The position numbers were made by a program, and so were the translations under genes. From a virus (taxonomy: Duplodnaviria; Caudoviricetes): 30,061 nucleotides of DNA. Shown here piece by piece: positions 1,482 to 27,471 of the stretch (position 1 is its first letter; each line of letters opens with the position of its first letter). The notes beneath the pieces are model-generated. The model saw nothing but the letters and a program-made list of their open reading frames with translations, made no database searches and had not been told where the DNA came from. The stretch covers positions 1-30,061 of the IMG/VR virus record IMGVR_UViG_3300032226_000290. One strand, given 5' to 3'.

Positions 1482-4400
1482 ATGTCAAGAAAAGTAATTG
1501 ATACAGGTATTGTGGGCAATGACGGTACCGGTGATAGCATACGCGACTCGTTTCGCAAGGTAAATGAAAACTTTAGAGAACTTTACGGAGCATTAGGTCT
1601 CGGCAGTAGGTTGAAGTTTTCTACTCTAGAAGACGCTCCGGTGGGCGGCGAAGGCGAAGATTATTATCGAGGGTACGAAAATTCCGTAGTTGCGGTCAAT
1701 CCTAGTGAATCTGGATTAATTTTTAAACAGTTGACTGCGGGAACCGGCGTCAGTTTAAATTTTAGCAATGAAAATCAAATAGTAATTACTAACACTCGAT
1801 CTTCGGTAGCAAACGATCCTGCTCCTAGTTTAGGAGGCAATCTCCAAGCACAATCGGGTAGTACGCAATATCGTATACAATCGTTAACTACTCCTATTAC
1901 TGCAAATGAAGCTGCAAACAAAGGTTATACTGATACAAAAATTGCATTAGGAGGTGTTGATGCACTAGATCCAGCCGCAGGCAATGTGCCCAATAGTGCA
2001 TTTGGAACTATGACCGGTCCGTTGATTTTAGCTAGGAATCCGGAACCAGAAGACGATATTACCTTTGGCGGCTTAATTGCTGCTACAAAAAATTATGTTG
2101 ACAATGCAGGTTTTGCTTCTGTAGCTAACTTGTATGTTGCTACTTCGGGATCAGACGAGCGTGTTGGAGTTGGTTCTAACACTCAAGGTCGTGCGCTATC
2201 ATTTGCCTATAGAACTCTTGAAGCAGCATTGAAAAAAGCAGAAGAGATTATCAAATCGTCTCCACCGGAAATTGGACCCTACCGTAAAGTATTAACTTGG
2301 ACTAACCCCGACAACGGTGTTATCAGCAACTGTTCATTAACTGACATTGCAGTGTCTCCAGATAACGGCGCGGGTTTTGCAGGACGAGTTACTTTAACCA
2401 TAGACACTATTAGACTAGTAACTGGTGGTTACAACTTTAAAGTTGGTGAAATTTTAAGAATCAATAAGGTAGGAGGGGCCGCTGTTGACGCCGCCACTGT
2501 TAGAATTCTCACAGTAAACAGCGAACCTGGCACTCCAAACGGGCCTATCCTTACATTTCAATTGTTAACTGGTGGTAAATTTGACCTGGCCCTGCCAGAA
2601 ACAAATTTTGCGGACCGCGTTGTTGTTGGTGTTGCTAACGGAAGTCAATTTGGAACCAGCGCAGAATTTGCTGTTACCTACAAGGTCAGCACAGCTATTA
2701 TCAGTTCTCCCGGCGCAGGTTACAGTTTGGTATCTGTTCGTGTAACTCCTGCTATAACTGATGTTAATGCAGTTGCGGGTTTTGGTTTTGCTGATGTTGT
2801 TGGCGGATCTATTGCCGGCATCACTATAACAGACCAGGGTAGTAGATTTACAGAATTTCCAGATCTTGTGGTTACATTACCTAGATTTGAAATCTATACC
2901 GGAGGGCAACGAACTGACTTCACTGGTGATGTAACTACTGACAGTGCTGTGGCTCGTAGAGGTCGAGACATTCGAGAAGGTCTTTACTTATTAGGTGAAA
3001 CTTCCGGAGCACTGGCACAGATTCTTTCACACCAAGGCGAATTAGATACCAACGGAAACGAATTATTCGATGTTGATATCAAATATGGTACATTCGTTAA
3101 CGGGGAAGCAATTTCGTATGGTGATGTAGCCAATACACGACAGGTTGCTGTTTTTGTTGAGTCCGGCATATACTATGAAAACTTACCTCTAAAGGTTTCA
3201 CAAAACGTAGCCGTTATCGGTGATGAATTCCGTAGAACAATTATTCGCCCAAAGAAAGGCATGAGTTCTAGTCCTTGGGCGTTTCAATATTTCAAACGAG
3301 ACCGAGTCATTGATGGCCTAAATACTTCACGAAACGACCTTAATGCCGCTAGAGAAGACACCTTTGGTTATCATTATCTAGGCAATGCAGGCGAACCAAT
3401 CTATCCCGAAGCAAGTATCAATAATAAAGGTTTCTATAGATCAGCAGCTGACCTACTAGCTTTAAACAAGCAATTTATACAAGAAGAAGTTATTGCCTGG
3501 ATCAACAAACAGATTGCTGAAGAAACTGCGCCATTTGTTGATTTTGAATATAACAGCGACATATGTAAACGAGATGTCGGTCTATTGATCGACGCTATGG
3601 TATTTGACCTTAGGTACGGCAGTGCTCCTCGAACTATTTCGGCAGCACTAAAATATAAAGATGCAACTAATGCCAGCGCAACTTTGGCAGTTACTACTCA
3701 ATTAACACAGACTATTGCAGCTATCCGTAGATTGGAAACAGTGGCGCAGGCTGTTATACGAAATCTTGAAATTGTAAACTCGGAATACCTTGCTCCGATT
3801 ACAGGAACACTGATTACATATACTGAACCACAGGTTATCGACACTGCCTACACGGCAGAAACAGGTGCTGGTGGAACTCCGGTTACTGTGTCGGCAGTAA
3901 CTAGAGGAAATCAAACCACAATCACAACATCTCCTGCTCACGGGCTCGACAGCGGAGAGATTGTGACTTTCCGCAACATGACTGGACTAACTCAGCTGAA
4001 CGGAAACAGTTATTGGATCACTGTGGCTAGCCCTACACAGTTTAACATTTTTACCAACTCTGCAAGAACTGCAAACGTTGTTAGCACAACATTTGATGAA
4101 TATACAGCTAGCTCAGGCGACTGTGTGCCCAACGGTGGTGTTATTGGAAGACTAACTGATGTCATTGTTGACATTATCGATACTTCTAGCGAGTCATTTA
4201 ATACTCCTTTAGACAACGATCAAATGGATGTGTTCTTGATGAACGATGCCACTATTCTCCGAGCTGCAACAGTTCAAGGTTCAGGTGGTTTTGCTCTAGT
4301 ACTTGATCCCGAAGGACAGATTCTTGCCAAGTCACCATATGCTCAAGAAGGTGCAGTGTTTTCAAAGAGCACAGGAAGACACACATTTAGCGGCGGTATG

Positions 4401-7400
4401 TTTGTTGACGGATTTGCAGGTAACATTAAGTTTAAAATTACTAATAAGATTAGCAACACAAGACTGGAAGTTAGTCAACTAAAACGATTTCCGCAACTGC
4501 CTGCTTCATTCATTGTTCAAGATCAAGTTTATCGTATTAACTATGTTAGAGACTTTACTTACGGAACTAGTGGTAGTACAGCTATATTTGTGCTAGATGA
4601 AGTTACTCCGTGGCCTTTCGATGTGTTTAACTATGATGAAAATATCTGTAGTAGAGATGTTGATTTAATTATCACCGGCCTAGGATATGATGTTGTACTC
4701 AATACTAACTATCATAGTAGACGAGCAGGTCAAACATATAGAGATGCTAATGCCGAAGTGGTCATTCAAGACCAACTAGATTTAACTATTAGAGCCATTG
4801 ATCGAGCGCACGATCTTGCAACTGCAACATTACAAGCTATCGCAGTATCATCCGAATTTAATCCTAGTCTTGCTGTAGTAGATCAAAGCAAACTAAACTT
4901 AAGAAATATTATTAGACGAGGTAATACAGCAGCCCCAGTACTGAGCATTACAAATCCAACAGGGTTAACTTCAGTCTTTGCCAATGCCAAAACTATATTA
5001 CTTGCCAATACAGATTTCTTAAAGCAGTTAAGTTCTGGTTATATTACCACAACATATCCCGCTCTAACATCATTCTCTGTACCAGACGGTCAAAAAATAT
5101 TTGAAAGAATAATAGAAAGCGTAGTCTACGATGTAGTCTACGGTGGAGACAGCGAAACTCGTAAAGTAGCTTTTGGTTTTTTCAACGGGGTAGGTGGTCC
5201 ACCTGAACTAGCTGCTGTACTTGCTTTACAAATATTAGATGAACAGGCATTGGCCTATGAAGATGCAATTGGCACACTAAAAAATGCAGCCAAACAGGTT
5301 ATTGTGAATACCACAGTGTCTCCTTTCTATGGAGCAACTGCTGGACAAAACTTATTCCCAGGTTCCCCAAGTGACGGGACAGTTGTGGCTGTTTTAGAAA
5401 CATTGTTTTCTATTGTAACTAATGCACTACTGCAATATAGAACCAACGGCGGAGTTGGTAGCCCTACTACTGCAACTAAACTTGCAGCCGGTGTTGCAGC
5501 GGCAAATCTCGCAGCTTCTACATATCCAACTATAGTTTCCGGCGGTGCAGGCAGACGCTATGATACTACTAGAATTAGTGCTCGAACTGCACTTGAATCT
5601 GCTAAGGCAACTATTCAAACCAATGTGATACAGTTTGTTAATGACAATGCCAATGTCTACGAAGTGTTGATGCCTGGTAATAGAAGTATGTTGTCAAACG
5701 ACTTCACACAGATCAACGACATGGGCTACGGGCTAATTGCAGCCAACGGCGGATTGACAGAATGCGTGAGTATGTTTACATACTATTGCTATACTTCTTA
5801 TTATTCTGTAACAGGTGGACAAATTCGTGGTGTGGGTGGATCTTCAGCTCATGGTGTGTATGCGTTGGCTGCGGAAGGATCAGATCCATTAGAGGTGCCT
5901 ACTGCTGTTGATCTATACTATGAACTTGCACAAGGTGCTGTTGTGTATAATGACTCTGGAGCCTACGACAATGAGGTTGGTGGCTTTATTATCTATGTCA
6001 CTGATTATACCTATCCTCCAAGAGACCAAAGTGAAATTGAAATTGATCACGGCGGGGTTACTGGCCTTGTAAGGTATCCTGTTGTTAGTGCAGTAACTGA
6101 AAGTGATTTTCCTAGTGACTCCACTGGACAAAAACTATATCGACTAAACTTGAATAGTGACACTGACGGCTTTGTTGCTGTAGTGCCAAACGGTACTAGA
6201 GTCACACTAAGAACCAATAATGAAATTGTTCTTACAGGCGGTGTTGTTGGCGTTGCAGTTCGACCATCCACTGCGTTGAAACTCAACGAATTATTCGACA
6301 GTCAATTGTATCGTGTTTTAGAATTTGCAGATTACTTCCCCCCAATCAACGAAGCAGTGGTATGTACATTTATAACCGGCACAGAAACACTTGTTCAAAC
6401 TTCAGTTGCTCACGGACAACAGCCAGGGTATGCAATTAGATTTGCAACTAGTGGTAGTTTGCCAACAGGAATTTCCGCTGGAGATACTTATTATCTATTA
6501 GACGACGGATTTACTGCAACTACATTTAGATTTTCGTCTAGTAAAAATGGTCAGCCGTTAGAAACCACTAGTGCAGGTGCTGGTAGTCATTACTTTGAAG
6601 CTACAAAACTTGCAGCCACTTCACTGAAAGATGGCTATAACTATGCCGAACTTACATTGTGGCCAAGACAAGAGTTTGTGCCTGTGGCGGCACCAAGTAA
6701 TCCAGGCGGTCCAAGATTAATAGTATCTGCCTTAGAAATAATTAGCGGATATAGCTATTATATTGTGGCCTTAGGGACCACAACTTGGATGGATCTAGGT
6801 GCAGGTGCAGAGACTGTCGGCACTGTGTTTACTGCAAGTGGACCTGCAACTAATACAACAGGTACCGCAGTTGTTAACAGTGCTCGTTGTACATTTGATC
6901 ATACCACTGACAAGATTAATAAAACAACACATGGATTTAACAACGGTGATGTTATCAGATTTGAAACTAGTGGCATTATGCCAGCAGGTGTGTTTAGTTC
7001 AAGACAATATATTGTTCGAGATGCTGCTGCCAGTCCCGATGAATTTAAACTTGCTAGCTATCCTGGTGGACCTGCTATTGAGTTTAGTGATAATGGCACA
7101 GGAATTTTTGCTGTAGGCAAAGTTCTAGGTAGAGTTGGAGACTCTGTACTGTCTGTTGTAGAATTAGGACCTATTGATGCTGCTCGAATTGTTGGAAGCA
7201 AGTTAACATTTAAGGGTCGAGATTACAGCATTACACAATATAACGATGCCGATATAACTGGCGAACCATATGGAGAGATTTATCTTAATACTCCGTTAGA
7301 GGATAGTGCTATTGTCTACGACAGTCCAATTACTCTGTTTGCAGGAGTTGCGGCTAGAACTGAGGACAGCCAAGGTACACTGACAATTCGTATTTCGTTA

Positions 7401-10400
7401 ACTCGTGTTACTGGTCATGATCTATTAGAAATTGGTACTGGTAGCTATGCTGATACAAACTATCCAAACGAAATTTACGGTAGCCCGGTTCGTATTGCTA
7501 CAGAAACACTGTTAGATACCACCGGCGAAGTAGAATACAGCCAGGTCGTAGAACGAGGCGAAGGCCGCTGCTTCTTTGTGACCACTGACCAATTTGGTAA
7601 CTTCTCCGTTGGTCCGTTCTTTAGAGTTGACCAAGGTACTGGTACTGTTACATTCTCAGCCAGCTTGGCATTGAGTAACTTGAGTGGTCTAGGATTCAAG
7701 CGTGGTGTTCCAGTCAGTGAATTTTCAACAGACACAACATTTAGTGACAATGCCACCGACACTGTGCCAACTGAAAATGCAACTCGCGGTTATATAGATC
7801 GTAGACTAGGCGTAGACCACGGCGGCAATAATATTGATGTTGCAAGGATGATTCCTCCAACCACTGGTGGCTTTATGGCCCTAAGTGGTCAACTAGCTAT
7901 GAAGGGCTCGTTGAACATGGACAGCTACAGAATTAGGAATGTGGCCGATCCAGTAGATCAAACTGATGCTGTAAATCGACGTAGTATTAGCTTTGATGCT
8001 ATTATTGCCAACAGCTTCCCGGGTCAACAAGTATCTGCAGGTATGAGCATTGCGTTTACAGGTACTGGCAACGAAGGTCGTGCTGTTACCGTTGGTGGAG
8101 ATTTAAGTGTACCAGGTGATAATGCTATCACTACAGGTATCGATTCAACACAAAACGAATGGAATATTTTCATTAAAGACAACATTATTGACAATGCTAA
8201 TATCAACAGTGCTGCGGCCATTGCACAGAGTAAATTGTCAATGGTTACTGCTTCAACTAGAGCAAGTGCGGCAGGCATCACTCAAGCTGACAGAGGACTT
8301 GCAAGTTTTAACTCAGCAGAATTTACAGTAACCAACGGTTGGGCAGAATTAAAAACCAACGGTATTGAACTAGGTAAGTTCGCACAGATTGCCACTGACA
8401 CGGTGCTCGGACGAAGTGCGGCCGGAACCGGAGATGTTAGTGCTGTAGCATTTAGCACCATAATAGATGAAGGCCTTGCTATCAAGAAAAGCCAATACAG
8501 CAGTCTAGGTTTCTTGCGTAGAACTGGTGCAACTACCAGCAGTCAAGACAGCGATTATGGAATTGTTGAAGCTGTTAGTGCATATGCTGGATTTACTGAT
8601 GTAAACGCTAATAACCGATTGGTTATTAGAGACAGTAACGGTGACATCGGTGTTAGAGACTTGTATGCAACAAGAGCATTCTATGTAGGAACCAGTGCCA
8701 GTGCTAATAAGAAACTTGCTGATACTTCAGTAACTGCTACCGGCGGAAGTATTAACTTGTACGGCTTTAATGGTGTACTAGGTGTCAGTATTGGAGATGG
8801 AAGTTTAACTAGTGACAAGGTTTCTAGTTATAGAAATAACAGTCACAGATTCCGTCTAAATGATGACAGTGCATTTGCACCAATTCAAGTTAGTTCAATT
8901 ATTACTCCAGACATAACCACAGGTGGTGTAGGTACAGCAGGTACATTGACTGGTAACTGGTCAATGGCAACTACCAGTAACCTAACATTGGGCACAGGTA
9001 CTATCAACGCCAGCGCAGGTACCTTGCAGTCTATTACACTAACTACAGGTGCAGTAGGCACAGCTGGTACCATAACTGGTGCTTGGAGTTTGAATACCAC
9101 AAGTAAAATCGTCGGTCAGACTGGTAGTGAAATTGATTTTTCAACGGGTACTATTAAATCAAGAACATTTACCACAGGCTCAAATATTACCACAGGTAAT
9201 CTAACTGGTAACTGGACTTTAACTTCGGGCAGTAAAATTGATTTTACCAACGGTACATTACAGACAACCACACTGACCACAGGTGCCACAGCCACAGCTG
9301 GTACTATAACTGGTAATTGGACTGTTGCACCCGGAAGTAAACTTGATCTAGGTACTACCACTCTAGTCACTGCTGGTATTTCAACTGGTGCTCCTGGAAC
9401 CAACGGTACCTTAGAAGGCAACTGGAGCATGTTAACAACCAGCAACCTAACACTAGGTACTGGTTATATAGATGCAAGAACAGGTACACTATATACCGAT
9501 ACACTAACAACAGGTACTGCAGGAACAGCTGGTGTTATTACAGGTAACTGGAGTATGGACTCTACCAGTAACATTACTTGGGGTACTGGTTACTTAGATG
9601 TACGCACAGGTACGCTATATGCTGATACACTAACTACTGGTCTTGCTGCTACCGCTGGTTTAGTAACTGGTGCATGGACTGTTGACACTGGCAGTACATT
9701 TGTTGCTTCTTCGATTCAAAGTCAGGCAAACTCTGCAACAACTACTGCTACTAGTGCTAACACAGGCAGTACAATTGTTCTAAGAGATGCTAGTGGCAAC
9801 TTCTCAGCTGGTGCCGTAACAGTTACAGGACTTACTATTGGGTCAACTTCAATAGCCGAATACATTTCTGACACTCTCGGCGCTATGGTGACCGGCAATA
9901 CCGAATCCGGAATTACTGTTACCTACGACGACTCAGATAATACAATAGATTTTGATGTTGGTGATTTTACTATCACGCTAACTGGAGATGTAACAGGAAC
10001 AGGTACAGTTACAAACTTAGGTAATGTTTCATTCGTTACAACTATATCAGCAGATGCTACAGTACTTGGTACCGACACAACTGGTCAATATGCAGCCACT
10101 GTGGCAGTAAGCGGAACTGGATTAAGTTGCACTGCACCGAATGCCGCAGACGGCACAGCCTATACTATCACAAGCAATGCTACAAGCCTTAACACATTAA
10201 GTGCTGTTGTTGCTCGTGATGGCAGCGGTAACTTTAGTGCTGGAACAATTACTGCTACATTAAGCGGTAATGCTAGTACAGCTAGTGCTTGGGCTACTGG
10301 TAGAACTATTACCTTAACAGGCGATGTAACTGGAACTTCAGCAGCATTTGACGGCAGTGGTAATCTTAGCTTTGCTACAACCATTGCCGCTAACTCAGTA

Positions 10401-11183
10401 GCATTAGGTACAGACACAACAGGTGACTATGTTGCTTCAATGACAGCAGGTACAGGCATCACTGTAGGAACAGCGACCGGTGAAGGATCAACTCCTGTTA
10501 TTACTAACACAGGTGTTACTTCTGCTGTAGGCGGTACAGGTATTAGCGTATCTGCTGGCACAGGTGCTGTTACATTCACTAACACAGGTGTTACCTCTGC
10601 TGCCGCTGGCACAGGTGTTAGTGTATCTGCTGGTACAGGTGCTGTTACATTTAGTATTGGACAGGCAATTGGTACAGGTAACAGTCCAACATTTGCTGGT
10701 ATTACAGTACCAAGCATTACCAAGAATGGCAGCAACGGAGTAGGCGATATTGGTCAAACTGGCAACAGATTTGGCACAATGTATGGTACAGCAAGTTCAG
10801 CGTTATATGCTGACTTAGCAGAAAAGTACTTGCCGGATGCAGCATATGCTGTAGGCACCGTAGTTGTATTTGGTGGTGAAAAAGAAATCACAGTCAGCAA
10901 CCTCAAAATGGATACAAGAGTAGCAGGTGTTATTTCTGAGAATCCTGCGTTCAAAATGAATGACGAACTAGAAGGCGGCGTTCATGTTGCTCTAGTAGGC
11001 CGTGTTCCATGTCGAGTTGCAGGCAAGATCAAGAAAGGCGACATGCTGATTACTAGCGGAATTCCAGGAGTAGCGGTTGCTGCTGTTGGCGACATTAAGG
11101 TAGGATCTATGATAGGAAAAGCACTTGAGGACTATGACTCAGATCACATAGGCACAATTGAAGTAGCTGTAGGGAGAGCATAA
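1482..11183 (+). CDS. Giant multidomain tail fiber / virion structural protein with C-terminal intramolecular chaperone
   Basis: 3233 aa. N-terminus IDTGIVGNDGTGDSIRDSFRKVNENFRELY resembles T4 gp9/gp10; beta-helix-like segments; G/T/A-rich fiber repeats; C-terminal ADLAEKY...VAGVISENP...VALVGRVPCRV...GKALE resembles the Peptidase_G2-type autocleaving chaperone. Confidence 0.85.
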   Translation: MSRKVIDTGIVGNDGTGDSIRDSFRKVNENFRELYGALGLGSRLKFSTLEDAPVGGEGEDYYRGYENSVVAVNPSESGLIFKQLTAGTGVSLNFSNENQIVITNTRSSVANDPAPSLGGNLQAQSGSTQYRIQSLTTPITANEAANKGYTDTKIALGGVDALDPAAGNVPNSAFGTMTGPLILARNPEPEDDITFGGLIAATKNYVDNAGFASVANLYVATSGSDERVGVGSNTQGRALSFAYRTLEAALKKAEEIIKSSPPEIGPYRKVLTWTNPDNGVISNCSLTDIAVSPDNGAGFAGRVTLTIDTIRLVTGGYNFKVGEILRINKVGGAAVDAATVRILTVNSEPGTPNGPILTFQLLTGGKFDLALPETNFADRVVVGVANGSQFGTSAEFAVTYKVSTAIISSPGAGYSLVSVRVTPAITDVNAVAGFGFADVVGGSIAGITITDQGSRFTEFPDLVVTLPRFEIYTGGQRTDFTGDVTTDSAVARRGRDIREGLYLLGETSGALAQILSHQGELDTNGNELFDVDIKYGTFVNGEAISYGDVANTRQVAVFVESGIYYENLPLKVSQNVAVIGDEFRRTIIRPKKGMSSSPWAFQYFKRDRVIDGLNTSRNDLNAAREDTFGYHYLGNAGEPIYPEASINNKGFYRSAADLLALNKQFIQEEVIAWINKQIAEETAPFVDFEYNSDICKRDVGLLIDAMVFDLRYGSAPRTISAALKYKDATNASATLAVTTQLTQTIAAIRRLETVAQAVIRNLEIVNSEYLAPITGTLITYTEPQVIDTAYTAETGAGGTPVTVSAVTRGNQTTITTSPAHGLDSGEIVTFRNMTGLTQLNGNSYWITVASPTQFNIFTNSARTANVVSTTFDEYTASSGDCVPNGGVIGRLTDVIVDIIDTSSESFNTPLDNDQMDVFLMNDATILRAATVQGSGGFALVLDPEGQILAKSPYAQEGAVFSKSTGRHTFSGGMFVDGFAGNIKFKITNKISNTRLEVSQLKRFPQLPASFIVQDQVYRINYVRDFTYGTSGSTAIFVLDEVTPWPFDVFNYDENICSRDVDLIITGLGYDVVLNTNYHSRRAGQTYRDANAEVVIQDQLDLTIRAIDRAHDLATATLQAIAVSSEFNPSLAVVDQSKLNLRNIIRRGNTAAPVLSITNPTGLTSVFANAKTILLANTDFLKQLSSGYITTTYPALTSFSVPDGQKIFERIIESVVYDVVYGGDSETRKVAFGFFNGVGGPPELAAVLALQILDEQALAYEDAIGTLKNAAKQVIVNTTVSPFYGATAGQNLFPGSPSDGTVVAVLETLFSIVTNALLQYRTNGGVGSPTTATKLAAGVAAANLAASTYPTIVSGGAGRRYDTTRISARTALESAKATIQTNVIQFVNDNANVYEVLMPGNRSMLSNDFTQINDMGYGLIAANGGLTECVSMFTYYCYTSYYSVTGGQIRGVGGSSAHGVYALAAEGSDPLEVPTAVDLYYELAQGAVVYNDSGAYDNEVGGFIIYVTDYTYPPRDQSEIEIDHGGVTGLVRYPVVSAVTESDFPSDSTGQKLYRLNLNSDTDGFVAVVPNGTRVTLRTNNEIVLTGGVVGVAVRPSTALKLNELFDSQLYRVLEFADYFPPINEAVVCTFITGTETLVQTSVAHGQQPGYAIRFATSGSLPTGISAGDTYYLLDDGFTATTFRFSSSKNGQPLETTSAGAGSHYFEATKLAATSLKDGYNYAELTLWPRQEFVPVAAPSNPGGPRLIVSALEIISGYSYYIVALGTTTWMDLGAGAETVGTVFTASGPATNTTGTAVVNSARCTFDHTTDKINKTTHGFNNGDVIRFETSGIMPAGVFSSRQYIVRDAAASPDEFKLASYPGGPAIEFSDNGTGIFAVGKVLGRVGDSVLSVVELGPIDAARIVGSKLTFKGRDYSITQYNDADITGEPYGEIYLNTPLEDSAIVYDSPITLFAGVAARTEDSQGTLTIRISLTRVTGHDLLEIGTGSYADTNYPNEIYGSPVRIATETLLDTTGEVEYSQVVERGEGRCFFVTTDQFGNFSVGPFFRVDQGTGTVTFSASLALSNLSGLGFKRGVPVSEFSTDTTFSDNATDTVPTENATRGYIDRRLGVDHGGNNIDVARMIPPTTGGFMALSGQLAMKGSLNMDSYRIRNVADPVDQTDAVNRRSISFDAIIANSFPGQQVSAGMSIAFTGTGNEGRAVTVGGDLSVPGDNAITTGIDSTQNEWNIFIKDNIIDNANINSAAAIAQSKLSMVTASTRASAAGITQADRGLASFNSAEFTVTNGWAELKTNGIELGKFAQIATDTVLGRSAAGTGDVSAVAFSTIIDEGLAIKKSQYSSLGFLRRTGATTSSQDSDYGIVEAVSAYAGFTDVNANNRLVIRDSNGDIGVRDLYATRAFYVGTSASANKKLADTSVTATGGSINLYGFNGVLGVSIGDGSLTSDKVSSYRNNSHRFRLNDDSAFAPIQVSSIITPDITTGGVGTAGTLTGNWSMATTSNLTLGTGTINASAGTLQSITLTTGAVGTAGTITGAWSLNTTSKIVGQTGSEIDFSTGTIKSRTFTTGSNITTGNLTGNWTLTSGSKIDFTNGTLQTTTLTTGATATAGTITGNWTVAPGSKLDLGTTTLVTAGISTGAPGTNGTLEGNWSMLTTSNLTLGTGYIDARTGTLYTDTLTTGTAGTAGVITGNWSMDSTSNITWGTGYLDVRTGTLYADTLTTGLAATAGLVTGAWTVDTGSTFVASSIQSQANSATTTATSANTGSTIVLRDASGNFSAGAVTVTGLTIGSTSIAEYISDTLGAMVTGNTESGITVTYDDSDNTIDFDVGDFTITLTGDVTGTGTVTNLGNVSFVTTISADATVLGTDTTGQYAATVAVSGTGLSCTAPNAADGTAYTITSNATSLNTLSAVVARDGSGNFSAGTITATLSGNASTASAWATGRTITLTGDVTGTSAAFDGSGNLSFATTIAANSVALGTDTTGDYVASMTAGTGITVGTATGEGSTPVITNTGVTSAVGGTGISVSAGTGAVTFTNTGVTSAAAGTGVSVSAGTGAVTFSIGQAIGTGNSPTFAGITVPSITKNGSNGVGDIGQTGNRFGTMYGTASSALYADLAEKYLPDAAYAVGTVVVFGGEKEITVSNLKMDTRVAGVISENPAFKMNDELEGGVHVALVGRVPCRVAGKIKKGDMLITSGIPGVAVAAVGDIKVGSMIGKALEDYDSDHIGTIEVAVGRA
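8913..9701 (+). repeat. Seven tandem 35-43 aa repeats (TTG-x3-TAGTITGNW) in the fiber shaft
   Basis: ITTGGVGTAGTLTGNWS, LTTGAVGTAGTITGAWS, FTTGSNITTGNLTGNWT, LTTGATATAGTITGNWT, ISTGAPGTNGTLEGNWS, LTTGTAGTAGVITGNWS, LTTGLAATAGLVTGAWT. Confidence 0.9.
10503..10652 (+). repeat. 75-bp in-frame tandem duplication (2 copies)
   Basis: ACTAACACAGGTGTTAC... starts at 10503 and 10578; encodes TNTGVTSAVGGTGISVSAGTGAVTF and TNTGVTSAAAGTGVSVSAGTGAVTF. Confidence 0.9.
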
Positions 11184-12580
11184 TGTCTAGACAATCAATT
11201 ACACCCGGAAAGGCTCCTATTGTATGGAGCACAGTGGAAGATGCGTTTACTAAAATTAACGCAAACTTCACAGAGCTGTATGCCAGCATAGGAGATACAG
11301 GTAGTATAGTGTTTGATGCACTAGAAAGCGATCTTGTACCATTTGGTAATGATGTATACAGTTTAGGAGCTCCACAGAAAAGATGGGCCAATTTGTATCT
11401 TAGCGACACCTTAATGATTGGCGGTGCTGCCATTACCAACCAAGGATTAACTGTTAATTTGCCCAGTGGCACCACAGTTGACGGCAATTTAATCATTGAT
11501 CCTAATAAAACATTTTTTAAAGAAGTCACGGTAAACAACGAAACTTCTATTGTTGCCAATGACTTTAACGATAACATAAATCTTCAAAGCGGAACTGGCA
11601 TTAGGATTACAGCCAACTCTAGTGCAGACACAGTTATTTTTGACAACATTGGTGTTACCAGTCTTGTTGCAGGAACAGCAATGGCAGTTAGCGCAGCCAC
11701 TGGTGCAGTTACTATTAACAACACAGGTGTTACTGCAATCACTGCTGGGCTGGGAATGAGTAGAAATACTGCCACAGGCACCGTGACTATTGTCAACGAA
11801 GGCATTATTGATGTTGATGCAGGGGTCGGAATCAGTGTTGGCGCTAGGGATGCAATCACTGGAAAGGTAATTGTTACAAATACTGCTCCTGCAGGTAACA
11901 GTTATCGTATATTTGCCACAGCAGGTGAACCTAATTTAACTGCTCGAAGTACAGCTGATACTATAACACTAATCGAAGGTGCCGGTATAAACATTACTAA
12001 CACAGTAGCTTCAGGCGCACTTACAAATAGAATAACATTAGACAATACCGGAGTACTGAGTTTGATAGCAGGTAACGGTGTAACTCTAAGCGGTAGTACA
12101 GGCAATGTCACTATCAGTGTAGGCAGTGGAGATCTCCGAGGCAGTTTGTTTGCTGACGATTCTACAATGTTGGTTGACGGCACTAGTGGTAGGATTGTTG
12201 GGCCAGTGTTTGCCAATGTTACTGGTGATGTAACTGGCAATGTTACAGGTACACTAACGGGTAACAGCGCAGGAACACATACCGGAGCAGTGGTAGGTAA
12301 TGTCACAGGTAATGTAAACGGTAATCTAAATGGAGATATAACTGGCAGCGTGTTTTCGGACAATTCAACAAGGCTGATAGACGGTACCGAGGGAAAAATA
12401 GTTGGACCAGTTGATTCGGCCACTGTTGCAGCCAGCAGCTATATTCAAACTGCTGTGTATGTAGATCTTACAGCCATTGCCGCAGCATTGCCGACGCCTT
12501 CAAAAGGCATGATAGTATTTGACGATGGAACAAATCAATTTAGAGGCTACGATGGCTCTAGTTGGGTAGCATTAAATTAA
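11183..12580 (+). CDS. Tail fiber-like structural protein
   Basis: 465 aa. N-terminal AFTKINANFTELY; NTGVTxxxAGxG and GNVTG repeats; TAATG coupling to the upstream gene. Confidence 0.8.
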   Translation: MSRQSITPGKAPIVWSTVEDAFTKINANFTELYASIGDTGSIVFDALESDLVPFGNDVYSLGAPQKRWANLYLSDTLMIGGAAITNQGLTVNLPSGTTVDGNLIIDPNKTFFKEVTVNNETSIVANDFNDNINLQSGTGIRITANSSADTVIFDNIGVTSLVAGTAMAVSAATGAVTINNTGVTAITAGLGMSRNTATGTVTIVNEGIIDVDAGVGISVGARDAITGKVIVTNTAPAGNSYRIFATAGEPNLTARSTADTITLIEGAGINITNTVASGALTNRITLDNTGVLSLIAGNGVTLSGSTGNVTISVGSGDLRGSLFADDSTMLVDGTSGRIVGPVFANVTGDVTGNVTGTLTGNSAGTHTGAVVGNVTGNVNGNLNGDITGSVFSDNSTRLIDGTEGKIVGPVDSATVAASSYIQTAVYVDLTAIAAALPTPSKGMIVFDDGTNQFRGYDGSSWVALN

Positions 12581-12591
12581 TGGAGCGATAG

Positions 12592-15500
12592 ATGGCTAAA
12601 AGAATAATTAGAACTGGCACAACTGCTGACCCAACCGGTGACAGCCTTAAGAATGCCTTTACCAAGGTAAACGACAACTTCACCGAACTGTATAATGCTC
12701 TAGGCCTAGATGCTGACACATTAAATCTAGGTGCGTTTGAATTTTCGGGTAGTGTAATGACTACTACAGACAGTTCAGCTATTGTGATTGATCAAGCTGC
12801 TACCATAACCAGCAACTTGTCAGTGGGTGGAGACATTCTTCCGCAGACTGCCAACGGTGGCGATCTAGGTTCAAGCACACTGCCTTGGCGTAGCCTGTAT
12901 GTCAGCAACAACACAATTTATATTGGTGGCACAGCGGTAGGAGTAGATGCTAATGGTAGTTTAACCACAGGGGGCACCGTGGTTGGCAGCACTCCGGCTT
13001 GGAACAGCATCACAGGCAAGCCTACATTATTCAGCGGCAGTTATAATGACTTAACCGACAAGCCCGACCTTGCTGGTACTTATCAGTTTTTTGTAGCAGC
13101 AGATGATTCCACACAGAGATTAGTATCAACAGATGAAGTCATTAAGTTTGTAGGTGCTGGTGGTATTACTACATCTAGTGATGCAGAAGGCAACATTACT
13201 ATTACCGGATCAGGCGGTGGTGGTGGTTCAACTTTGGTCAACGGTGCTTACACAGTTAGTTTAGGATCAGATGGTACGCTAACTGCTCCAGGAAATATAA
13301 CTTCAAAAACGCTAACAGTATCTAATGGTAGTGCGGGATATGAAAGTCAGTTATTTGTAAATGACAATGCAAACAATAGAATATTATTTAGAAACTACAA
13401 TAACAGACAAGGTGTTGCCGGATACGATTATTCGTCATATAACAGTGGTATAGTTGTTGATGCAGGCTCTGATGGATATACCGTGGTTAGTGGAGGACAC
13501 AGTGGAAGTAGTAATAGTACCTCGTTTACTTTTGATTTTAGAACCCTAGCTAATGGTACTTCAGCTCAAAGGATGGGAGTATTGAGATTTGATAGTGGAA
13601 TAGATAACGGTCCAAGTTTATCAAATGCAGTATCAATGAAATATTTTCCTACCACTGATTCTGAATCAAATGGAACATATTATGAGTTTGCAACTACGGG
13701 ATTAAGATTCCTAGATGCTACAGTGCAGACAACAGCCTATACTGGTCCACAGACATTCTTAGATGGCGATGTAACCGGTTCAGTGTTTGCCGACGATTCA
13801 ACTCTGTTAGTAGATGGTGTTAGTGGTATTGTTCCTAATTCTGAACTTGCTAAATCTATCACACAGGTCATAGATAGTAATGCCACTGTTAATACCAGTG
13901 CAACTGTAACTACTAACAATAGCTATACTAATACCGTAGACTTTTCAACAGATGTAGATCCAGGAGTAGGATATGCTATAGCAGGTTGGTATCAACGCAA
14001 TTCCACTCAGATTGAATTTGCTCTGTTTGGTCCATCAGCATTTCAGACATATCTACTTGGATTAGCATTAGGTAGAACTGTAATTGTAACATATTCTACT
14101 GGCAGCGGCAATCAAACATTAACTAGAACACTGACCCAAACATTTTCAGCAACTGGTCAAGCAGATCCTGCTAACCCAACTTGGGGCAGAGTCAGTGGTA
14201 GAATTGATGCAACATTGCCAGCTGATCAAACAGGCATTGTCAGCATCAACTTCCCAGTATATTCGACCAGCACTAAAACTTGGACATTTGGTACTGGCGG
14301 TCTGCTATCATTAGGTGCCAGCCGTGGCGGAATATACGCCAATCAAACCACAGGTATGATTACCATTGGTGACAATATAGCCCCTGACGGTACTCCGTCG
14401 GCACCAAGCACTGTGATACAGATCGGTGGGGCTACCAACGCATTTGTAATCTCTGCTTATGGACCTCCAGCAGCGAATTGGACATTTGGTATGGATGGTG
14501 CATTGACCGTCCCCGGCGATATCAAGAGCAGTGGCAATATTAATATCGACATCAATCTCACAGACTCAACTCTAAGACGCTGGAGTTTTGGTGAAGATGG
14601 AAAACTTACATTCCCAGACGGTGCCAACTACGCTGGACAGACTGTTACAATGCCAACTACTAATAATGGTACTCCTAATAGTTTTGTTTGGGAATTCAGC
14701 GACAATAGTCTAGGCAGCGATAGAATAACACTAAACTGGAATCTTTTAGCATCAGACACCGCAGGTTTCTACATTGGTACTACACACAGTACTACCGGCA
14801 AGTATCTATTCCTCGATGGCACTGACCAGAGCCTGAGCTATACCGCCGGTGGTGGTATTTTCGGTGGTGGTAAACTAATATTTGGCTCATCTGCAGGCAA
14901 CAATGCCGGAGATTACAACGCCATAGAAATCAAAGCTACTAACGGTGATGTCTATCTAACTTCTACAGAAAGCGTGAAAATCACTGTTGATGCTGCAGAT
15001 AGTTCTGCGAGAATCTGGACATTTGATCCTACTGGTGAGTTAACAGTACCAGGACCAATTAGTGGATTAGGAAATAATAAACTAGAATTTACTGCTAATT
15101 CGGGGGCTGTGTTCTCGGGATCCAACGGCAATACTATTAGCATTTATGCCAACGACGGTGACATTGGTAGTAGTGCTGATATCAACATTTACACCAACAC
15201 TGCCGGCAGCTTGAACAGCTGGACCTTTGACACAGATGGTAGAACTAGATTTCCAACTGCCACAGCACCTGCTCACAGTTATGGAGCAGCCGGAGATGTT
15301 CCCGGTACGGTGGCGTTTGACGATTCGTACATTTATTATTGTACAACCAACTACAGTGGTTTAATGACTATTTTAAATGTATCAACCCAATCCGGCGGTG
15401 CTGCAAACGGTTATTTTTTCAACATTGCTAATGATGCCCTATCAGCAGTTAGAGTAGGTTGGACTATAACAGGGCCAAACATTTCGGGATCAGCAAATAT

Positions 15501-19038: not shown

Positions 19039-19622
19039 CCAGCAATATTAACTATTTGAGCATTAACGAAAACTTTCCTGTAGCAGGAGAGGACAATGAT
19101 ACGCAGACCTTTAGAGATAACTTCGATACTATCAAAACCAGCTTGCGAGCAGGTCAAGAAGAAATCACTGCTCTACAGGCCAATACTGCCAAGACCAACC
19201 AAGACAACGACTTTGAAGATAATCAAATCAGTCGAGTGGTATTTAGAGATGTAATGGATCAACGATTTGACGGAGGCATTATTACTCTTCCAACAACTAT
19301 GCTAACCGTTGACTACGAAAACGGCGGTTATCAAGTTTTTCGATTTAGTGCAAACATGAATATCGATTTTCAAAACTTTCCAGAAAATTCTTCGGCCAGC
19401 GGCCCAATTGGCTGCGGAAGAATGACCCTAGAGTTATATGGTGACGGTAGTGCAAGAACATTAACATTTATCACCAGCGCCGGCACAAATCTTAGACGCA
19501 ACAGTGGATTTCCGCAAGGCGGAACAGTTGTGGTCACTTCAACAACTGCACCGATCATTATAGAAATTTGGCGCCATAACGCTACCAATATTTTTATGAA
19601 TTACCTAGGTCAATTCAGCTAA
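19035..19622 (+). CDS. Hypothetical virion structural protein
   Basis: 195 aa, GTG start overlapping the upstream stop (GTGA); N-terminal INENFPVAGEDNDTQTFRDNF then a predicted coiled coil; TAAATA at 18996-19001. Confidence 0.7.
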   Translation: MTSNINYLSINENFPVAGEDNDTQTFRDNFDTIKTSLRAGQEEITALQANTAKTNQDNDFEDNQISRVVFRDVMDQRFDGGIITLPTTMLTVDYENGGYQVFRFSANMNIDFQNFPENSSASGPIGCGRMTLELYGDGSARTLTFITSAGTNLRRNSGFPQGGTVVVTSTTAPIIIEIWRHNATNIFMNYLGQFS

Positions 19623-19855
19623 TGTTCCACCCATTGCAACAAGACCTTAGAAGTTTTACTGATTCCGAAATCGAAAACAAGTTGCAGGAATTGAGTAAAA
19701 AATACTTTGCTGCACAGCGTATGGGCAGCTACGAACTCTTGACACAAGTATCAACCTTTGTTACAATATATAGACAGGAACTATCTCGTAGATATATGGA
19801 AAAAAGCAGAGGCGCTCTAGATCCCGATCTAGATCAATTGATAAATGTTGACTGA
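19622..19855 (+). CDS. Hypothetical small helical protein
   Basis: 77 aa, TAATG coupling to the upstream gene. Confidence 0.7.
   Translation: MFHPLQQDLRSFTDSEIENKLQELSKKYFAAQRMGSYELLTQVSTFVTIYRQELSRRYMEKSRGALDPDLDQLINVD
19739..19767 (+). promoter_or_regulatory. Near-consensus sigma70 promoter upstream of the dnaE fragment
   Basis: TTGACA (19739-19744), 17 nt, TACAAT (19762-19767), with TGn extended -10. Confidence 0.75.
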
Positions 19856-20324
19856 ACATACAGTAGAAAATCTCATTAAAGGTGTAATGCGGCACGGTCC
19901 AGACATACTGGAAAATTGTGTTGCCAATCCCAACGACATTGTTGATTATCTACAACGAATAGATCAAGAGCGTCTAGACTATCCTGTTACCAAATTACAA
20001 GTAGACAAGAGCAATTGGTTCATACCGGAAGAGTACAGAACCATGGATATATTAGATTGGCTATATTGCCGATGTTCTAGTCCTGAAATTAAACAACGAG
20101 TAGTTGAGGAACTTAGATTATTTTCCAAACATGACATGATTCCTGTACTCAAAACTATGAAGTATGTGGTAGATACACTTCGTAAGAATAACATAGTTTG
20201 GGGTGTAGGTCGAGGCAGTTCCGTTTCTAGCTATGTGCTGTTCCTTATAGGGATACATAAGATAGACAGCGTTAAATACGATTTACCAATCGACGAATTC
20301 TTTAAAGGAGAACAAAATGGGTAA
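19845..20324 (+). CDS. dnaE: DNA polymerase III alpha (DnaE)-like stand-alone fragment
   Basis: 159 aa. RVVEELRLF...VVDTLRKNNIVWGVGRGSSVSSYVLFLIGIHKIDSVKYDLPIDEFFK aligns by eye to DnaE RLxxEL...GPGRGSxAGSLVAYxLxITxxDPLxxDLLFERFL. Ends before PDxD. Confidence 0.85.
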   Translation: MLTEHTVENLIKGVMRHGPDILENCVANPNDIVDYLQRIDQERLDYPVTKLQVDKSNWFIPEEYRTMDILDWLYCRCSSPEIKQRVVEELRLFSKHDMIPVLKTMKYVVDTLRKNNIVWGVGRGSSVSSYVLFLIGIHKIDSVKYDLPIDEFFKGEQNG

Positions 20325-20541
20325 AATGCACACAAGTATGCGTGGAAGAGAAGTTGATCTAGAAAAACTCAACATGATTCACGAAAATGTTCCAGCAGTT
20401 GGCAATGCCAAAGTAAATGCTCGCGGCGACGAATTAGGCCCAGGTGGCGCGATTAAAAGAACTCGCGAACAGGTTCTAGCAGATTACTACGCTAAGAATC
20501 CTGGTGCCATGCAAGAAGAAATTGCAGCTCGTAGACGATAA
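20317..20541 (+). CDS. Hypothetical protein
   Basis: 74 aa; AAGGAG SD; TAAATA at 20273-20278. Confidence 0.75.
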   Translation: MGKMHTSMRGREVDLEKLNMIHENVPAVGNAKVNARGDELGPGGAIKRTREQVLADYYAKNPGAMQEEIAARRR

Positions 20542-20550
20542 GAGGTATAA

Positions 20551-20949
20551 ATGTTTGCATTTGCACCTAAACAGATCAAGGTACGGGCACTGCCTAACGA
20601 TATCCTAGTTGTAGACATGGATATGGGCGAGATGAAAACTGCGGGCGGTATTGTTATTCAAAGCGATGACGGCAAAGCACATGGTGTTAAACCTAGATGG
20701 GCCAAGGTCTACAAAGTTGGTAGCAATGTTACTGATATCCAAGAAGGTCAGTGGATTCTTATTGAACACGGACGATGGACTCGTAAAATCACAATCGATG
20801 ACGGAGAAAGTGTTAAAGACTTTCAAAAGGTAGAAACTAAATCTATCCTAGCCGTAACCGACGAAAGACCTAACGATTTTTATATTGGAACAGAATACGG
20901 ACACGGCGACACTGCCACTATTCGACCTGAAGACTTTGGCGCACGATAA
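20551..20949 (+). CDS. groES: Co-chaperonin GroES (Cpn10)-like protein
   Basis: VRALPNDILV, KTAGGIVI mobile loop, AKVYKVG, IQEGQWILI, SILAV; GAGGT SD. Confidence 0.85.
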   Translation: MFAFAPKQIKVRALPNDILVVDMDMGEMKTAGGIVIQSDDGKAHGVKPRWAKVYKVGSNVTDIQEGQWILIEHGRWTRKITIDDGESVKDFQKVETKSILAVTDERPNDFYIGTEYGHGDTATIRPEDFGAR

Positions 20950-21575: not shown

Positions 21576-22121
21576 ATGCTAAAGGTCGTAGATAATTGGT
21601 TAGGTGATGAAGATCTTGTAAGATTTTTAGATAGACAATTTACTTATAAAACTCCACATCATTATATAGAATACGCAGATTCTACTAATGCGCCTCCTAG
21701 TATATTTGGTAAAAAACATAATCAAGAAACTAAAAGTCAAATTTTTTACAGTTATGACTTTAATCCGCAAGAACCATTGATTAAATTTTTAGTCATCAAA
21801 GCCATAGAGACAGTAGAAGATCAACTAGGTATTGCAGATTTAGATTGTGTTCGATGTCACTTGTCTATACAACACCCTAGACAAGATGTAGAATGGCATT
21901 CAGACGGTTCAGAGATTACCTGTGTTTACACAGCATCTACACCAGGAGGCGGAACTTTTGATTTTATTACTCTCGACGGTATTCAAAAAGTTGAGTTTGT
22001 AAAAAATAAACTTGTAATCTTTGACGGTGTTCAGAAGCATATGGCCAAGGCTCCGGAAGCCAATCGACCGAGAATTTTACTAGTAATGAAACTAGCAAAA
22101 TCTAAATCTTTAAAAATATGA
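21576..22121 (+). CDS. 2OG-Fe(II) oxygenase
   Basis: HxD (WHSDG), GGGTF, NKLVIFDG, distal His (KHMA) and Arg (RPRIL). Confidence 0.75.
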   Translation: MLKVVDNWLGDEDLVRFLDRQFTYKTPHHYIEYADSTNAPPSIFGKKHNQETKSQIFYSYDFNPQEPLIKFLVIKAIETVEDQLGIADLDCVRCHLSIQHPRQDVEWHSDGSEITCVYTASTPGGGTFDFITLDGIQKVEFVKNKLVIFDGVQKHMAKAPEANRPRILLVMKLAKSKSLKI

Positions 22122-22378: not shown

Positions 22379-22566
22379 GAAATTTAGAATTAGTAGATGC
22401 AGTTATTGCACTACACGAGATTGCAAAAACAGTTGCTGAAGAAATTGGCATTGGACAACTACACGATGATATCCGTAATTGTGCAGATCGGTTACATGAG
22501 TTCTCGCTTATTGACAGTAAAAATAGTATAATAACACAAGACATTATCACAAAGGCAAAAGAATGA
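22375..22566 (+). CDS. Hypothetical protein
   Basis: 63 aa, ATGA overlaps at both ends. Confidence 0.65.
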   Translation: MRNLELVDAVIALHEIAKTVAEEIGIGQLHDDIRNCADRLHEFSLIDSKNSIITQDIITKAKE

Positions 22567-23477
22567 AAGAATTATGGGTAGAAAAGTATCGTCCTAAGAC
22601 TGTAGATGGTTATGTGTTTAGAGACGATCATCAACGCAAACAGATCAACACATGGATTAAAGACAAGAGCATTCCTCACTTGTTGCTAAGTGGTGCTGCT
22701 GGAATTGGTAAGACAACTCTTGCCAAAATTCTCATTAACGAAATCGGTATCGAAGATTACGATGTGTTAGAGATCAATGCAAGTCGTACTAACTCAGTCG
22801 AAGATGTTCGTGATAAGATCACTAACTTTGTACAGATGATTCCGTTTGGTCCGTTCAAGGTAGTACTGCTTGATGAGGCTGATTATCTAAGCCCTAACGC
22901 ACAGGCAGCACTTCGCGGTGTTATGGAAGAGTATCACTCAACTAGTAGATTTATTCTAACCTGTAACTATCCTAATAGAATTATTCCTGCAATACATAGT
23001 CGCTGTCAAGGTTTTCATGTAGAACGCACAGACCAAACAGAGTTTACAGCTCGTGTTGCTACCATTCTTGTAGAAGAGAATGTAGAGTTTGATCTTGATA
23101 CCTTAGACATGTATGTCAAAGTAGCCTATCCAGATCTTCGCAAGTGTATTCAACTGGTGCAACAAAATTCAACCGAGGGCAATCTAGAAGCTCCTAACAA
23201 AGGCGATGCCGGAGAAGCAGAATGGAAGTTTGACATGGTTGCTTTATTCAAGGCTGGTAAAATCAACGAAGCAAGAAAGTTGCTCTGCGGTAAACTTCGT
23301 GCAGAGGAAATGGTAGAAGTTTACACTTGGCTGTACACTAACATTGAAGTGTTCGGCGATGAAGAAAAACAAAATAAAGCTATCCTAATTATCAAAGACG
23401 GTCTCAAAGACAACACACTAGTTATTGATGCTGAGATTAATCTTGCGGCAACATTGGTAAAACTAGCTAGACTTTAA
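22563..23477 (+). CDS. Sliding-clamp loader ATPase subunit (RFC small subunit / T4 gp44-like)
   Basis: LWVEKYRP, Walker A GAAGIGKT, EINAS, Walker B LLDEAD, AQAALR, FILTCN, SRC. Confidence 0.93.
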   Translation: MKELWVEKYRPKTVDGYVFRDDHQRKQINTWIKDKSIPHLLLSGAAGIGKTTLAKILINEIGIEDYDVLEINASRTNSVEDVRDKITNFVQMIPFGPFKVVLLDEADYLSPNAQAALRGVMEEYHSTSRFILTCNYPNRIIPAIHSRCQGFHVERTDQTEFTARVATILVEENVEFDLDTLDMYVKVAYPDLRKCIQLVQQNSTEGNLEAPNKGDAGEAEWKFDMVALFKAGKINEARKLLCGKLRAEEMVEVYTWLYTNIEVFGDEEKQNKAILIIKDGLKDNTLVIDAEINLAATLVKLARL

Positions 23478-26121: not shown

Positions 26122-26845
26122 TGAAGGATTGAGAAGTAACGACTTAAAGGACATGGTCCACAGCGTTCTTACTATCGACACACATCGTAGTAAGATGGGC
26201 GAAGATCGTGATGTCTGCGTCCTTAGCTTTAAAGTAAACGACCGCAATCCTGCAAAGGACCTGATGGAGTTTATTGAAAAAGGCTACAACTTTGTACTAG
26301 ATGCAGATGTTAGTGCAGGAGAGAACGAAGACGGCGAATATTTTGTATTCGTTGAATTGAGCCGTACACCAAAATTAGCAGAACAGATTAAAGAATTAGA
26401 ATATGGTGTTCGCAAACTGACTAGCATCGATGATTGGAAGTTTAAGTATTTTAAAGAAGACAATCTTCATGAGCTCAGCGAAGAAACTTTAAACACGGTT
26501 GTTCCGTCAACTCCTCAAAAGTACGATGGACTAATGAGTAAAGTTCGCACTGAAGGAGTCAAGCGTTTCTTTAGCAAGACCCTAATGGACGATCTAACTC
26601 TAGACGGTGATGTGATTACTATTCACAAACCATTCAATCAACAGATTAAATTGCGTATGGTTAAAGAAGCAGCCACTGATGCAATCTTAGAAGGCAGCGA
26701 AGATACTATCACTATGGATCAAGCATCTACTAGTGAAGTATTTTGGCTAACTAAAGTTTTAGGCGACTACAATATCAACAAGGTTGGTAATAATTTTATG
26801 TTTGACAATAAAGGTCAAGCAATGCTTTTACAAAGGATAGAATAA
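26099..26845 (+). CDS. Hypothetical phage protein
   Basis: 248 aa. ATG at 26099 follows AAGGAG and is preferred over 26060; TAATG coupling to the endolysin. Confidence 0.7.
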   Translation: MQHSQQLNEGLRSNDLKDMVHSVLTIDTHRSKMGEDRDVCVLSFKVNDRNPAKDLMEFIEKGYNFVLDADVSAGENEDGEYFVFVELSRTPKLAEQIKELEYGVRKLTSIDDWKFKYFKEDNLHELSEETLNTVVPSTPQKYDGLMSKVRTEGVKRFFSKTLMDDLTLDGDVITIHKPFNQQIKLRMVKEAATDAILEGSEDTITMDQASTSEVFWLTKVLGDYNINKVGNNFMFDNKGQAMLLQRIE

Positions 26846-27471
26846 TGAGCTTTACATTCAACTTTACAAAACAACAATTAAAAGAAATGATTCCAAAGAA
26901 TCCCTATGTGGATCAATGGTTCGAGGCAATTTACGAAATACTTCCCGAGTATGAAATTACAACTCCTCAGCGAGTGGCTGCTTTCCTAGCACAATGCGCT
27001 CACGAAAGCGGTGGCTTTGTTTTCCTAAAAGAAAACCTAAACTACAAGGCAGCTAGCCTACGCAGAGTGTTTCCTAAATATTTTCCGGATGATGCCATTG
27101 CTGCTCAGTATGCAGGCAAAGGTGAAATGATTGCCAACCGAGTGTATGCTAACCGCATGGGCAACGGTGATGAGGCAAGTGGTGATGGTTTCCGTTATTG
27201 TGGTCGTGGTCTTATTCAATTGACTGGCAAAAACAACTACACATTCTTTGCGGGCTCATTAGATATCCCTGTAGAAGAAGCCAGCGAATATCTACAGACA
27301 TTTGAAGGCGCTGTTCAATCAGCCTGTTTCTTTTGGGAACAAAACAAACTAAACCAGTGGGCAGATGCAGGTGACATACTGACATTGACCAAACGCATCA
27401 ATGGCGGAACTATCGGCCTAGAAGATCGCATCAAACATTACCAACACGCACTACACATATTCGGAGCTTGA
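26845..27471 (+). CDS. Endolysin, glycoside hydrolase family 19
   Basis: AAFLAQCAHESGGF, ENLNY, VYANRMGNG, GRGLIQLTGKNNY, TKRINGG. Confidence 0.93.
   Translation: MSFTFNFTKQQLKEMIPKNPYVDQWFEAIYEILPEYEITTPQRVAAFLAQCAHESGGFVFLKENLNYKAASLRRVFPKYFPDDAIAAQYAGKGEMIANRVYANRMGNGDEASGDGFRYCGRGLIQLTGKNNYTFFAGSLDIPVEEASEYLQTFEGAVQSACFFWEQNKLNQWADAGDILTLTKRINGGTIGLEDRIKHYQHALHIFGA

Follow-up and report, generated by a model that had tools for sequence, protein, structure and literature searches.

The ORF at positions 19845 to 20324 of the DNA analyzed here is, we are confident, the N-terminal half of a split, minimal Pol III alpha, whose catalytic partner is encoded by a separate gene in related phages. 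As an explanation of the whole, we lean towards the two halves assembling into a helper polymerase that extends primers for the main polymerase. The window, by which we mean the entire 30,061-base virus record (completeness estimate, 8%), has the annotated gene content of a large tailed phage, including genes for tail fibre, baseplate, GroES and MazG, together with an RFC clamp loader, dCMP deaminase, PhoH and a GH19 endolysin. The features that concern us are the following.

19845..20324, plus strand: very probable N-terminal (nucleotide-binding) half of a split minimal Pol III alpha (N-half); 159 aa, PHROG 11127
19845..19997, plus strand: residues 1 to 51 of the N-half, helical and variable, unmatched to DnaE by the structural aligner
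20211..20219, plus strand: R123-G124-S125, equivalent to R362-G363-S364 of E. coli alpha (GS motif); invariant in 60/60 aligned sequences
20295..20306, plus strand: end motif E151-F-F-K154, with E151 at the position of E. coli R390
19739..19767, plus strand: sigma70-type promoter-like site TTGACA-17-TG-TACAAT, matching at 11/12 positions; predicted start near 19774
19622..19855, plus strand: upstream 77-aa ORF, PHROG 15348 (weak); contains the promoter-like site and overlaps the start of the N-half
20317..20541, plus strand: downstream 74-aa ORF, PHROG 14844, with no DnaE continuation; present in 26/27 full-flank loci
20551..20949, plus strand: GroES-like co-chaperonin (Pfam/PHROG); 27/27 full-flank loci
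22563..23477, plus strand: RFC/gp44-type clamp loader large subunit (Pfam/PHROG); 26/27 full-flank loci

Elsewhere, the window encodes a UvdE UV endonuclease (39-830), a tail-fibre-like ORF of 3,233 aa (1482-11183; the likeness is one of appearance), a protein weakly resembling 2OG-Fe oxygenases (21576-22121) and the GH19-type endolysin (26845-27471). Rfam gave no match anywhere in it.

Several lines of evidence identify the ORF as a piece of DnaE. Residues 77 to 156 match positions 18 to 97 of the 260 in PF07733 (E = 9e-13), and the PHROG 11127 profile (171 positions) covers most of the ORF (E = 1.8e-41). A profile of 60 family members aligns without gaps to residues 320 to 392 of E. coli DnaE (numbered here by the K-12 gene) and ends at the sequence ...LFERFL. 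Family C polymerases were the only structural matches to an AlphaFold model of the N-half (pLDDT 83.5); modelled residues 52 to 159 superpose on residues 272 to 398 of E. coli alpha with Z scores of 9.2 to 10.4, and the match to M. tuberculosis DnaE1 reaches Z 12.2 (rmsd 2.5 Å over 102 residues). Profiles were required for this assignment, as a search of solved structures with a single N-half sequence returned no match. The original prediction of an intact, stand-alone 159-aa ORF with a GRGS motif that stops at FERFL is thus correct, and the stop falls at DnaE residue 393. Pfam detects neither PHP nor intein domains in the ORF, in agreement with the predicted absence of a PHP domain and of an intein-like terminus. 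Nor does anything in the six frames of the window continue the ORF, again as claimed; the PDxDxD motif and any match to a profile of the catalytic half are absent from all of them. Residues 1 to 51 are under purifying selection despite their variability, and an ESM Atlas search with residues 1 to 60 gave no score of 0.9 or above.

The N-half is not peculiar to this window. Among 50,697 records of cultured phages, tblastn detected it in 92, and the 60 matches listed come from RaK2-, GAP32-, 121Q-, PA5oct-, Phosso-, RsoM2USA- and SCTP-2-like phages; a protein search returned 6,291 relatives of 87 to 279 aa. The GRGS motif and a stop within 0 to 5 residues after the end motif are common to all 204 N-half sequences compared, a set that comprises the window, 83 sequences from loci and the 120 top proteins and includes duplicates and many close relatives. 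The break point is therefore conserved, and the dN/dS of 0.06 to 0.14 in six pairs among four close copies shows purifying selection. Could the ORF nevertheless be a decayed dnaE remnant or an assembly artefact? The sole point in favor is that it corresponds to a fragment of a protein that normally has 1,100 aa, and we give this reading practically no credence. The thousands of relatives of similar length, the fixed end point and a dN/dS of about 0.1 rule out a pseudogene and speak, as the original prediction did, against simple decay; in addition, cultured phages keep the identical local gene order (small ORF, N-half, small ORF, GroES, clamp loader), and the region around the stop is covered continuously by contigs assembled from independent runs. 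Seven longer proteins are fusions of the N-half with neighbours or probable chimeras, and none of the seven is a natural fusion of the two halves, in what is a weak search for such a form. Among three of them (P0242, P0243 and P0245), the N-half apparently runs into the downstream small gene and an acidic tail in two, and the third carries an N-terminal extension that may resemble a homing endonuclease.

The original prediction also expected a separate ORF starting near M-x-D-I-D-I-D, and such an ORF exists in relatives, where it is conserved and begins with M-P-D-I-D-I-D. We reached it through a weak Pfam match in a 270-kb relative (G001) with an N-half of 57% identity, in which a 192-aa ORF (PHROG 11778) starting with MPDIDIDF lies about 186 kb from the N-half. 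The model of this C-half (pLDDT 89.6) aligns end to end with residues 401 to 784 of E. coli alpha and so directly continues the window ORF. Its best match was to PolC (Z 9.4, rmsd 3.5 Å, 185 aligned residues), followed by DnaE structures (Z 6.1 to 8.7), with the next unrelated match at 4.3. The C-half starts at DxDxD in 201 of 202 sequences, duplicates and many close relatives included. Residues D3, D5, D7, K66, D68, R135, P136, Y162 and H168 are invariant in 54/54 C-halves, and divergent C-halves keep the catalytic residues listed here in 11/11 cases, with the exception of Y162 (9/11). The PF07733 search missed the C-half in four of four cultured genomes; a weak PF07733 match in GAP32 (L009), considered as a C-half, was a chance match. 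At least three contigs of metagenome-assembled genomes also carry a C-half (L207, L208 and L209, from the 12 of 64 parts of the genome-contig collection that were scanned); they are assigned to a Polynucleobacter, a haloarchaeon and a marine gammaproteobacterium and are probably mis-binned phage DNA.

A 2026 cryo-EM preprint (10.64898/2026.06.29.735100) describes the residues surrounding the dNTP in E. coli Pol III. Of these, D401, D403, K553, D555, R639, P640, Y754 and H760 correspond to D3, D5, K66, D68, R135, P136, Y162 and H168 of the C-half, K66 and D68 being assigned through an alignment to the KMDFL motif of M. tuberculosis. Measured against the family C core, the N-half keeps the R-G-S motif in every one of the 60 aligned sequences, and D401, D403, D555 and Y754/H760 are found in all 54 C-halves and are absent from the window ORF; the palm arginines R390 and R396 are not kept. 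The preprint reports that H760 is a gate against ribonucleotides, and its retention in the C-half makes DNA synthesis the likely chemistry. At the R390 position, N-halves have an acidic residue (E or D at position 151 in 60/60 of the family alignment), and the R396 position falls between the two halves; the same source gives a 27-fold loss of efficiency for R390A in the E. coli enzyme. The region of R709/R710 is shortened from about 110 to 22 residues in the C-half. The always-basic K154 of the N-half (K or R in 60/60) and, in the C-half, K138/R139 may compensate for the altered arginines. Judged by motif spacing, the roughly 105 residues that hold the thumb are reduced to about 26; little of the thumb and index finger is left, and the Y754/H760 motif of the fingers is retained. 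The original prediction had expected a finger ORF of its own, and the fingers sit instead in the C-half. According to the preprint, palm residues 271 to 393 of the E. coli enzyme are rigid and the catalytic part that follows is mobile. The phage break coincides exactly with this boundary, and an enzyme assembled from two chains is for that reason plausible.

The two halves are similarly distributed. The C-half is present in 96 cultured-phage records and the N-half in 92, with host-genus counts that agree within one, and all five complete cultured genomes searched (GAP32, PA5oct, Phosso, RsoM2USA and Slicko01) contain both at a spacing of 4 to 224 kb. The closest spacing seen is in RsoM2USA (L004, MG752970.1), in which a single strand carries the halves at 7962-8483 and 12672-13253, with a distance of about 4 kb between them. 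Alishewanella phage Slicko01 (L184, OQ508956.1) has a genome of 141 kb, well below jumbo size, with halves at 611-1123 and 11962-12573, a distance of 11 kb. The end motif of its N-half is divergent, and an N-half is also present in Slickus01. Eight IMG/VR contigs, G001 among them, bear both halves. The C-half was found on 6 of 25 IMG/VR contigs picked for the N-half, and the N-half on 4 of 25 picked for the C-half, but these counts are mostly uninformative because most of the misses are small fragments: N-half contigs lacking the C-half are 11 to 41% complete, apart from G004, and those with the reverse pattern are 17 to 79% complete (G007, at 79%, has only the C-half). In G004 (543 kb, CheckV 100%), the N-half is present and the C-half was not found; the zinc-finger gene that normally adjoins the partner is missing from it as well, as is the primase typical of the group, and a block of the genome is likely absent from this record. 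For the phage in the window we infer the pairing from its relatives, since the C-half is absent from this 8%-complete contig.

The N-half was predicted to have its own near-perfect sigma70 promoter. A promoter scan of the window is by itself not significant (15 sites versus 12.8 expected). Among relatives, 39/48 have a site matching at 10/12 or better within 200 bases upstream, compared to 79/960 random windows. The near clade consists of the window and 27 loci and was chosen after a survey of upstream sites in relatives. In this clade the synonymous codons that spell the promoter are invariant (28/28, 28/28, 23/23 and 26/26), as is the synonymous position at the predicted start (20/20), whereas 13 other conserved degenerate codons of the upstream ORF agree in only 33 to 70%. 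The promoter is likely real and of the host type. Hence the site itself stands, conserved and with 11/12 matches, but its dedication to the N-half does not: it lies within the upstream ORF in the near clade (and 35 bases upstream in another clade) and precedes a same-strand gene run that reaches the clamp loader. It likely drives this whole run and not the N-half alone. The upstream ORF is present in 18/27 full-flank loci. In one RNA run, 7% of the words were present, and its contigs came from relatives only.

The surroundings of the C-half are conserved. Genes for a DnaG-type primase and a DnaB helicase flank it in 51/51 full-flank loci, GAP32 and Slicko01 have the same two genes beside it, and a UvsW-like helicase is near it in 40/51 loci. 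Four genes of unassigned role flank the C-half in 51/51 loci (L096:194-667, 651-1334 and 2125-2499, the last on the minus strand; L097:6986-7444); they comprise PHROG 11758, PHROG 11058 (C2H2-like zinc finger), PHROG 11637, which runs in the opposite direction, and an ORF of 153 aa, and are candidate subunits or loaders. Separate ORFs for two other Pol III domains, PHP and HhH, were not detected: the relatives' genomes have neither a PHP ORF (0/9), which the original prediction had expected, nor an HhH ORF (0/9), and the positive controls matched in both searches. A family B polymerase is present in all eight of the relatives' genomes examined. The proposal of a split C-family polymerase therefore holds with respect to the complementary ORF and fails with respect to a sole replicase, which the complete family B polymerase in 8/8 relatives rules out; the split Pol III is accordingly an accessory enzyme. 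In three genomes the family B polymerase occupies two reading frames (PA5oct 217618-221395, G004 381447-390099, Slicko01 3529-5033), which may reflect introns, inteins or a second split.

The split enzyme is already known as a prediction from sequence. Section 3.4.1 of Iyer et al. (2021, Viruses 13:63, PMC7824862) describes, for the jumbo phages of group 2.2, a minimal Pol III alpha that is split in two. The N unit described there is a standalone protein with just the N-terminal, NTP-binding part of the palm, as is the window ORF. We consider the two to be the same, an identification that rests on the paper's description and its phage set; in that section we see no essential difference, the window member coming from an uncultured phage. 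The section likewise describes distant genes for an N-terminal nucleotide-binding and a C-terminal Mg- and template-binding part, no other Pol III domains and a family B polymerase alongside, matching the relatives studied here. Of the group 2 jumbo-phage traits named in the same work, the RFC clamp loader is encoded in the window, and a UvsW-type helicase gene lies next to that of the C-half in relatives; in contrast to the jumbo-phage setting of that section, the pair is also present in a phage of 141 kb. What our work adds is the break at the hinge, the linkage to primase and helicase in 51/51 loci, the DNA-level constraint on the promoter and the pair in the 141-kb genome, though the supplement of Iyer et al. 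may already contain the accessions, neighbourhoods and alignments that we give.

The single-chain enzymes share more with the phage pair than the palm fold and the R-G-S motif, which are common to DnaE from E. coli (2HNH, 5FKU), M. tuberculosis (5LEW) and T. aquaticus (3E0D) and to PolC (3F2B); the C-half has their three aspartates, K553, R639-P640, Y754 and H760. The differences are large: the phage enzyme has about 350 aa in two chains versus about 1,160 in one chain in bacteria, lacks PHP and HhH, has a reduced thumb and index finger, and has an acidic residue in place of R390 and no R396. Cyanobacteria also encode DnaE in two distant genes, as halves that are spliced by a split intein into one full-length chain. 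In contrast, the phage halves end and start at the junction without intein sequence; the N-halves stop there, the C-halves start there, and no intein domain is matched in Pfam, which rules out intein splicing.

How could the pair work? The N-half would contribute the palm (about 272 to 393) with its R-G-S triphosphate-binding motif and the C-half the region from about 399 to 784, with the three aspartates, K553, R639-P640 and the Y754/H760 motif. Judging by this sequence complementarity, the two halves probably form an active heterodimeric DNA polymerase. With the H760 gate retained, the heterodimer would make DNA and not RNA, and without the thumb and the C-terminal domains its processivity would be low. 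A core that lacks a thumb and proofreading, and that is accompanied by a complete family B replicase, would suit synthesis in short runs. Because primase and helicase genes constantly adjoin the partner gene, and on the model of DnaE in B. subtilis, we hypothesize a role in the primosome, in which primers would be extended and then handed to the family B replicase. The functional model is the primer hand-off of DnaE, DnaG and DnaC on the B. subtilis lagging strand, for which Rannou et al. (2013, PMC3664799) describe a second polymerase, of the DnaE type, that accompanies the main replicase and is tied to primase and helicase; there the enzyme is full-length and the hand-off shown biochemically, whereas the link in the phages is one of gene neighbourhood and the main replicase is of family B. 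That primer extension is the main job of the heterodimer is a fair proposal, which we stop short of calling likely. The position of the C-half beside the primase may reflect no more than a general replication cluster. Family B polymerases of the T4 type need no help to extend RNA primers, and hence a primer extender is not obviously required. The literature searched, which covers a minority of the subscription journals, contained no activity or binding data for the split enzyme.

The main rival to primer extension, which we consider unlikely, is that the heterodimer serves in repair, gap filling, lesion bypass or recombination restart and is dispensable for normal replication. Repair is among the options named by Iyer et al. 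(2021, PMC7824862), and roles of this kind would suit a polymerase with neither a proofreading PHP domain nor HhH and with most of its thumb deleted, a UvsW-like helicase near the C-half in 40/51 loci and a UV endonuclease encoded in the window. Yet the Y754/H760 selection pocket is retained, primase and helicase accompany the C-half more constantly (51/51), and the near-universal presence of the halves across the group is better explained by a core function than by a dispensable one. Improbable in our estimate is a nonreplicative nucleotidyltransferase, acting in template-independent or short-patch addition, end processing or the modification of DNA or nucleotides. It would explain why the thumb and most domains that grip DNA are missing, why the charge at the R390 position is reversed in all 60 sequences and why neither the structural aligner nor the ESM Atlas gives an assignment to the 51 N-terminal residues, but not why R639/P640 and K553, which contact template and primer, and the base-stacking Y754 are conserved.

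A reading that dispenses with the C-half altogether would make the N-half a noncatalytic decoy or inhibitor of the host Pol III. The conserved host-type promoter suggests early expression, the halves can be 224 kb apart, and G004 shows an N-half by itself; however, an invariant nucleotide-binding motif is useless without the aspartates, and the halves have exactly complementary sequences and a matched distribution, so we regard a decoy as very improbable. In its most far-reaching form, the helper polymerase that we favor would be part of a two-polymerase fork, in which a thumb-less, two-chain Pol III core of about 350 residues, cut at the hinge, works with primase and helicase as a Pol-alpha-like extender for the family B replicase. 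This we offer tentatively, as a possibility to which the balance of the evidence does not yet incline. If true, no working polymerase of the C family would be smaller; its triphosphate pocket would be rewired, with an acidic residue at the R390 position, and its active site would be turned on when the products of separately regulated genes assemble.

In summary, the copy in the window adds little by itself, and it is the residue inventory, the position of the hinge and the primase linkage that sharpen the experiment. With dozens of cultured phages, which can be propagated on laboratory strains, and thousands of metagenomic relatives, the split enzyme lends itself readily to experiment. A heterodimer with confirmed activity would define the minimum parts of a bacterial replicative polymerase, and it would establish a mixed replisome of families B and C that bears on the origins of the replicase families.
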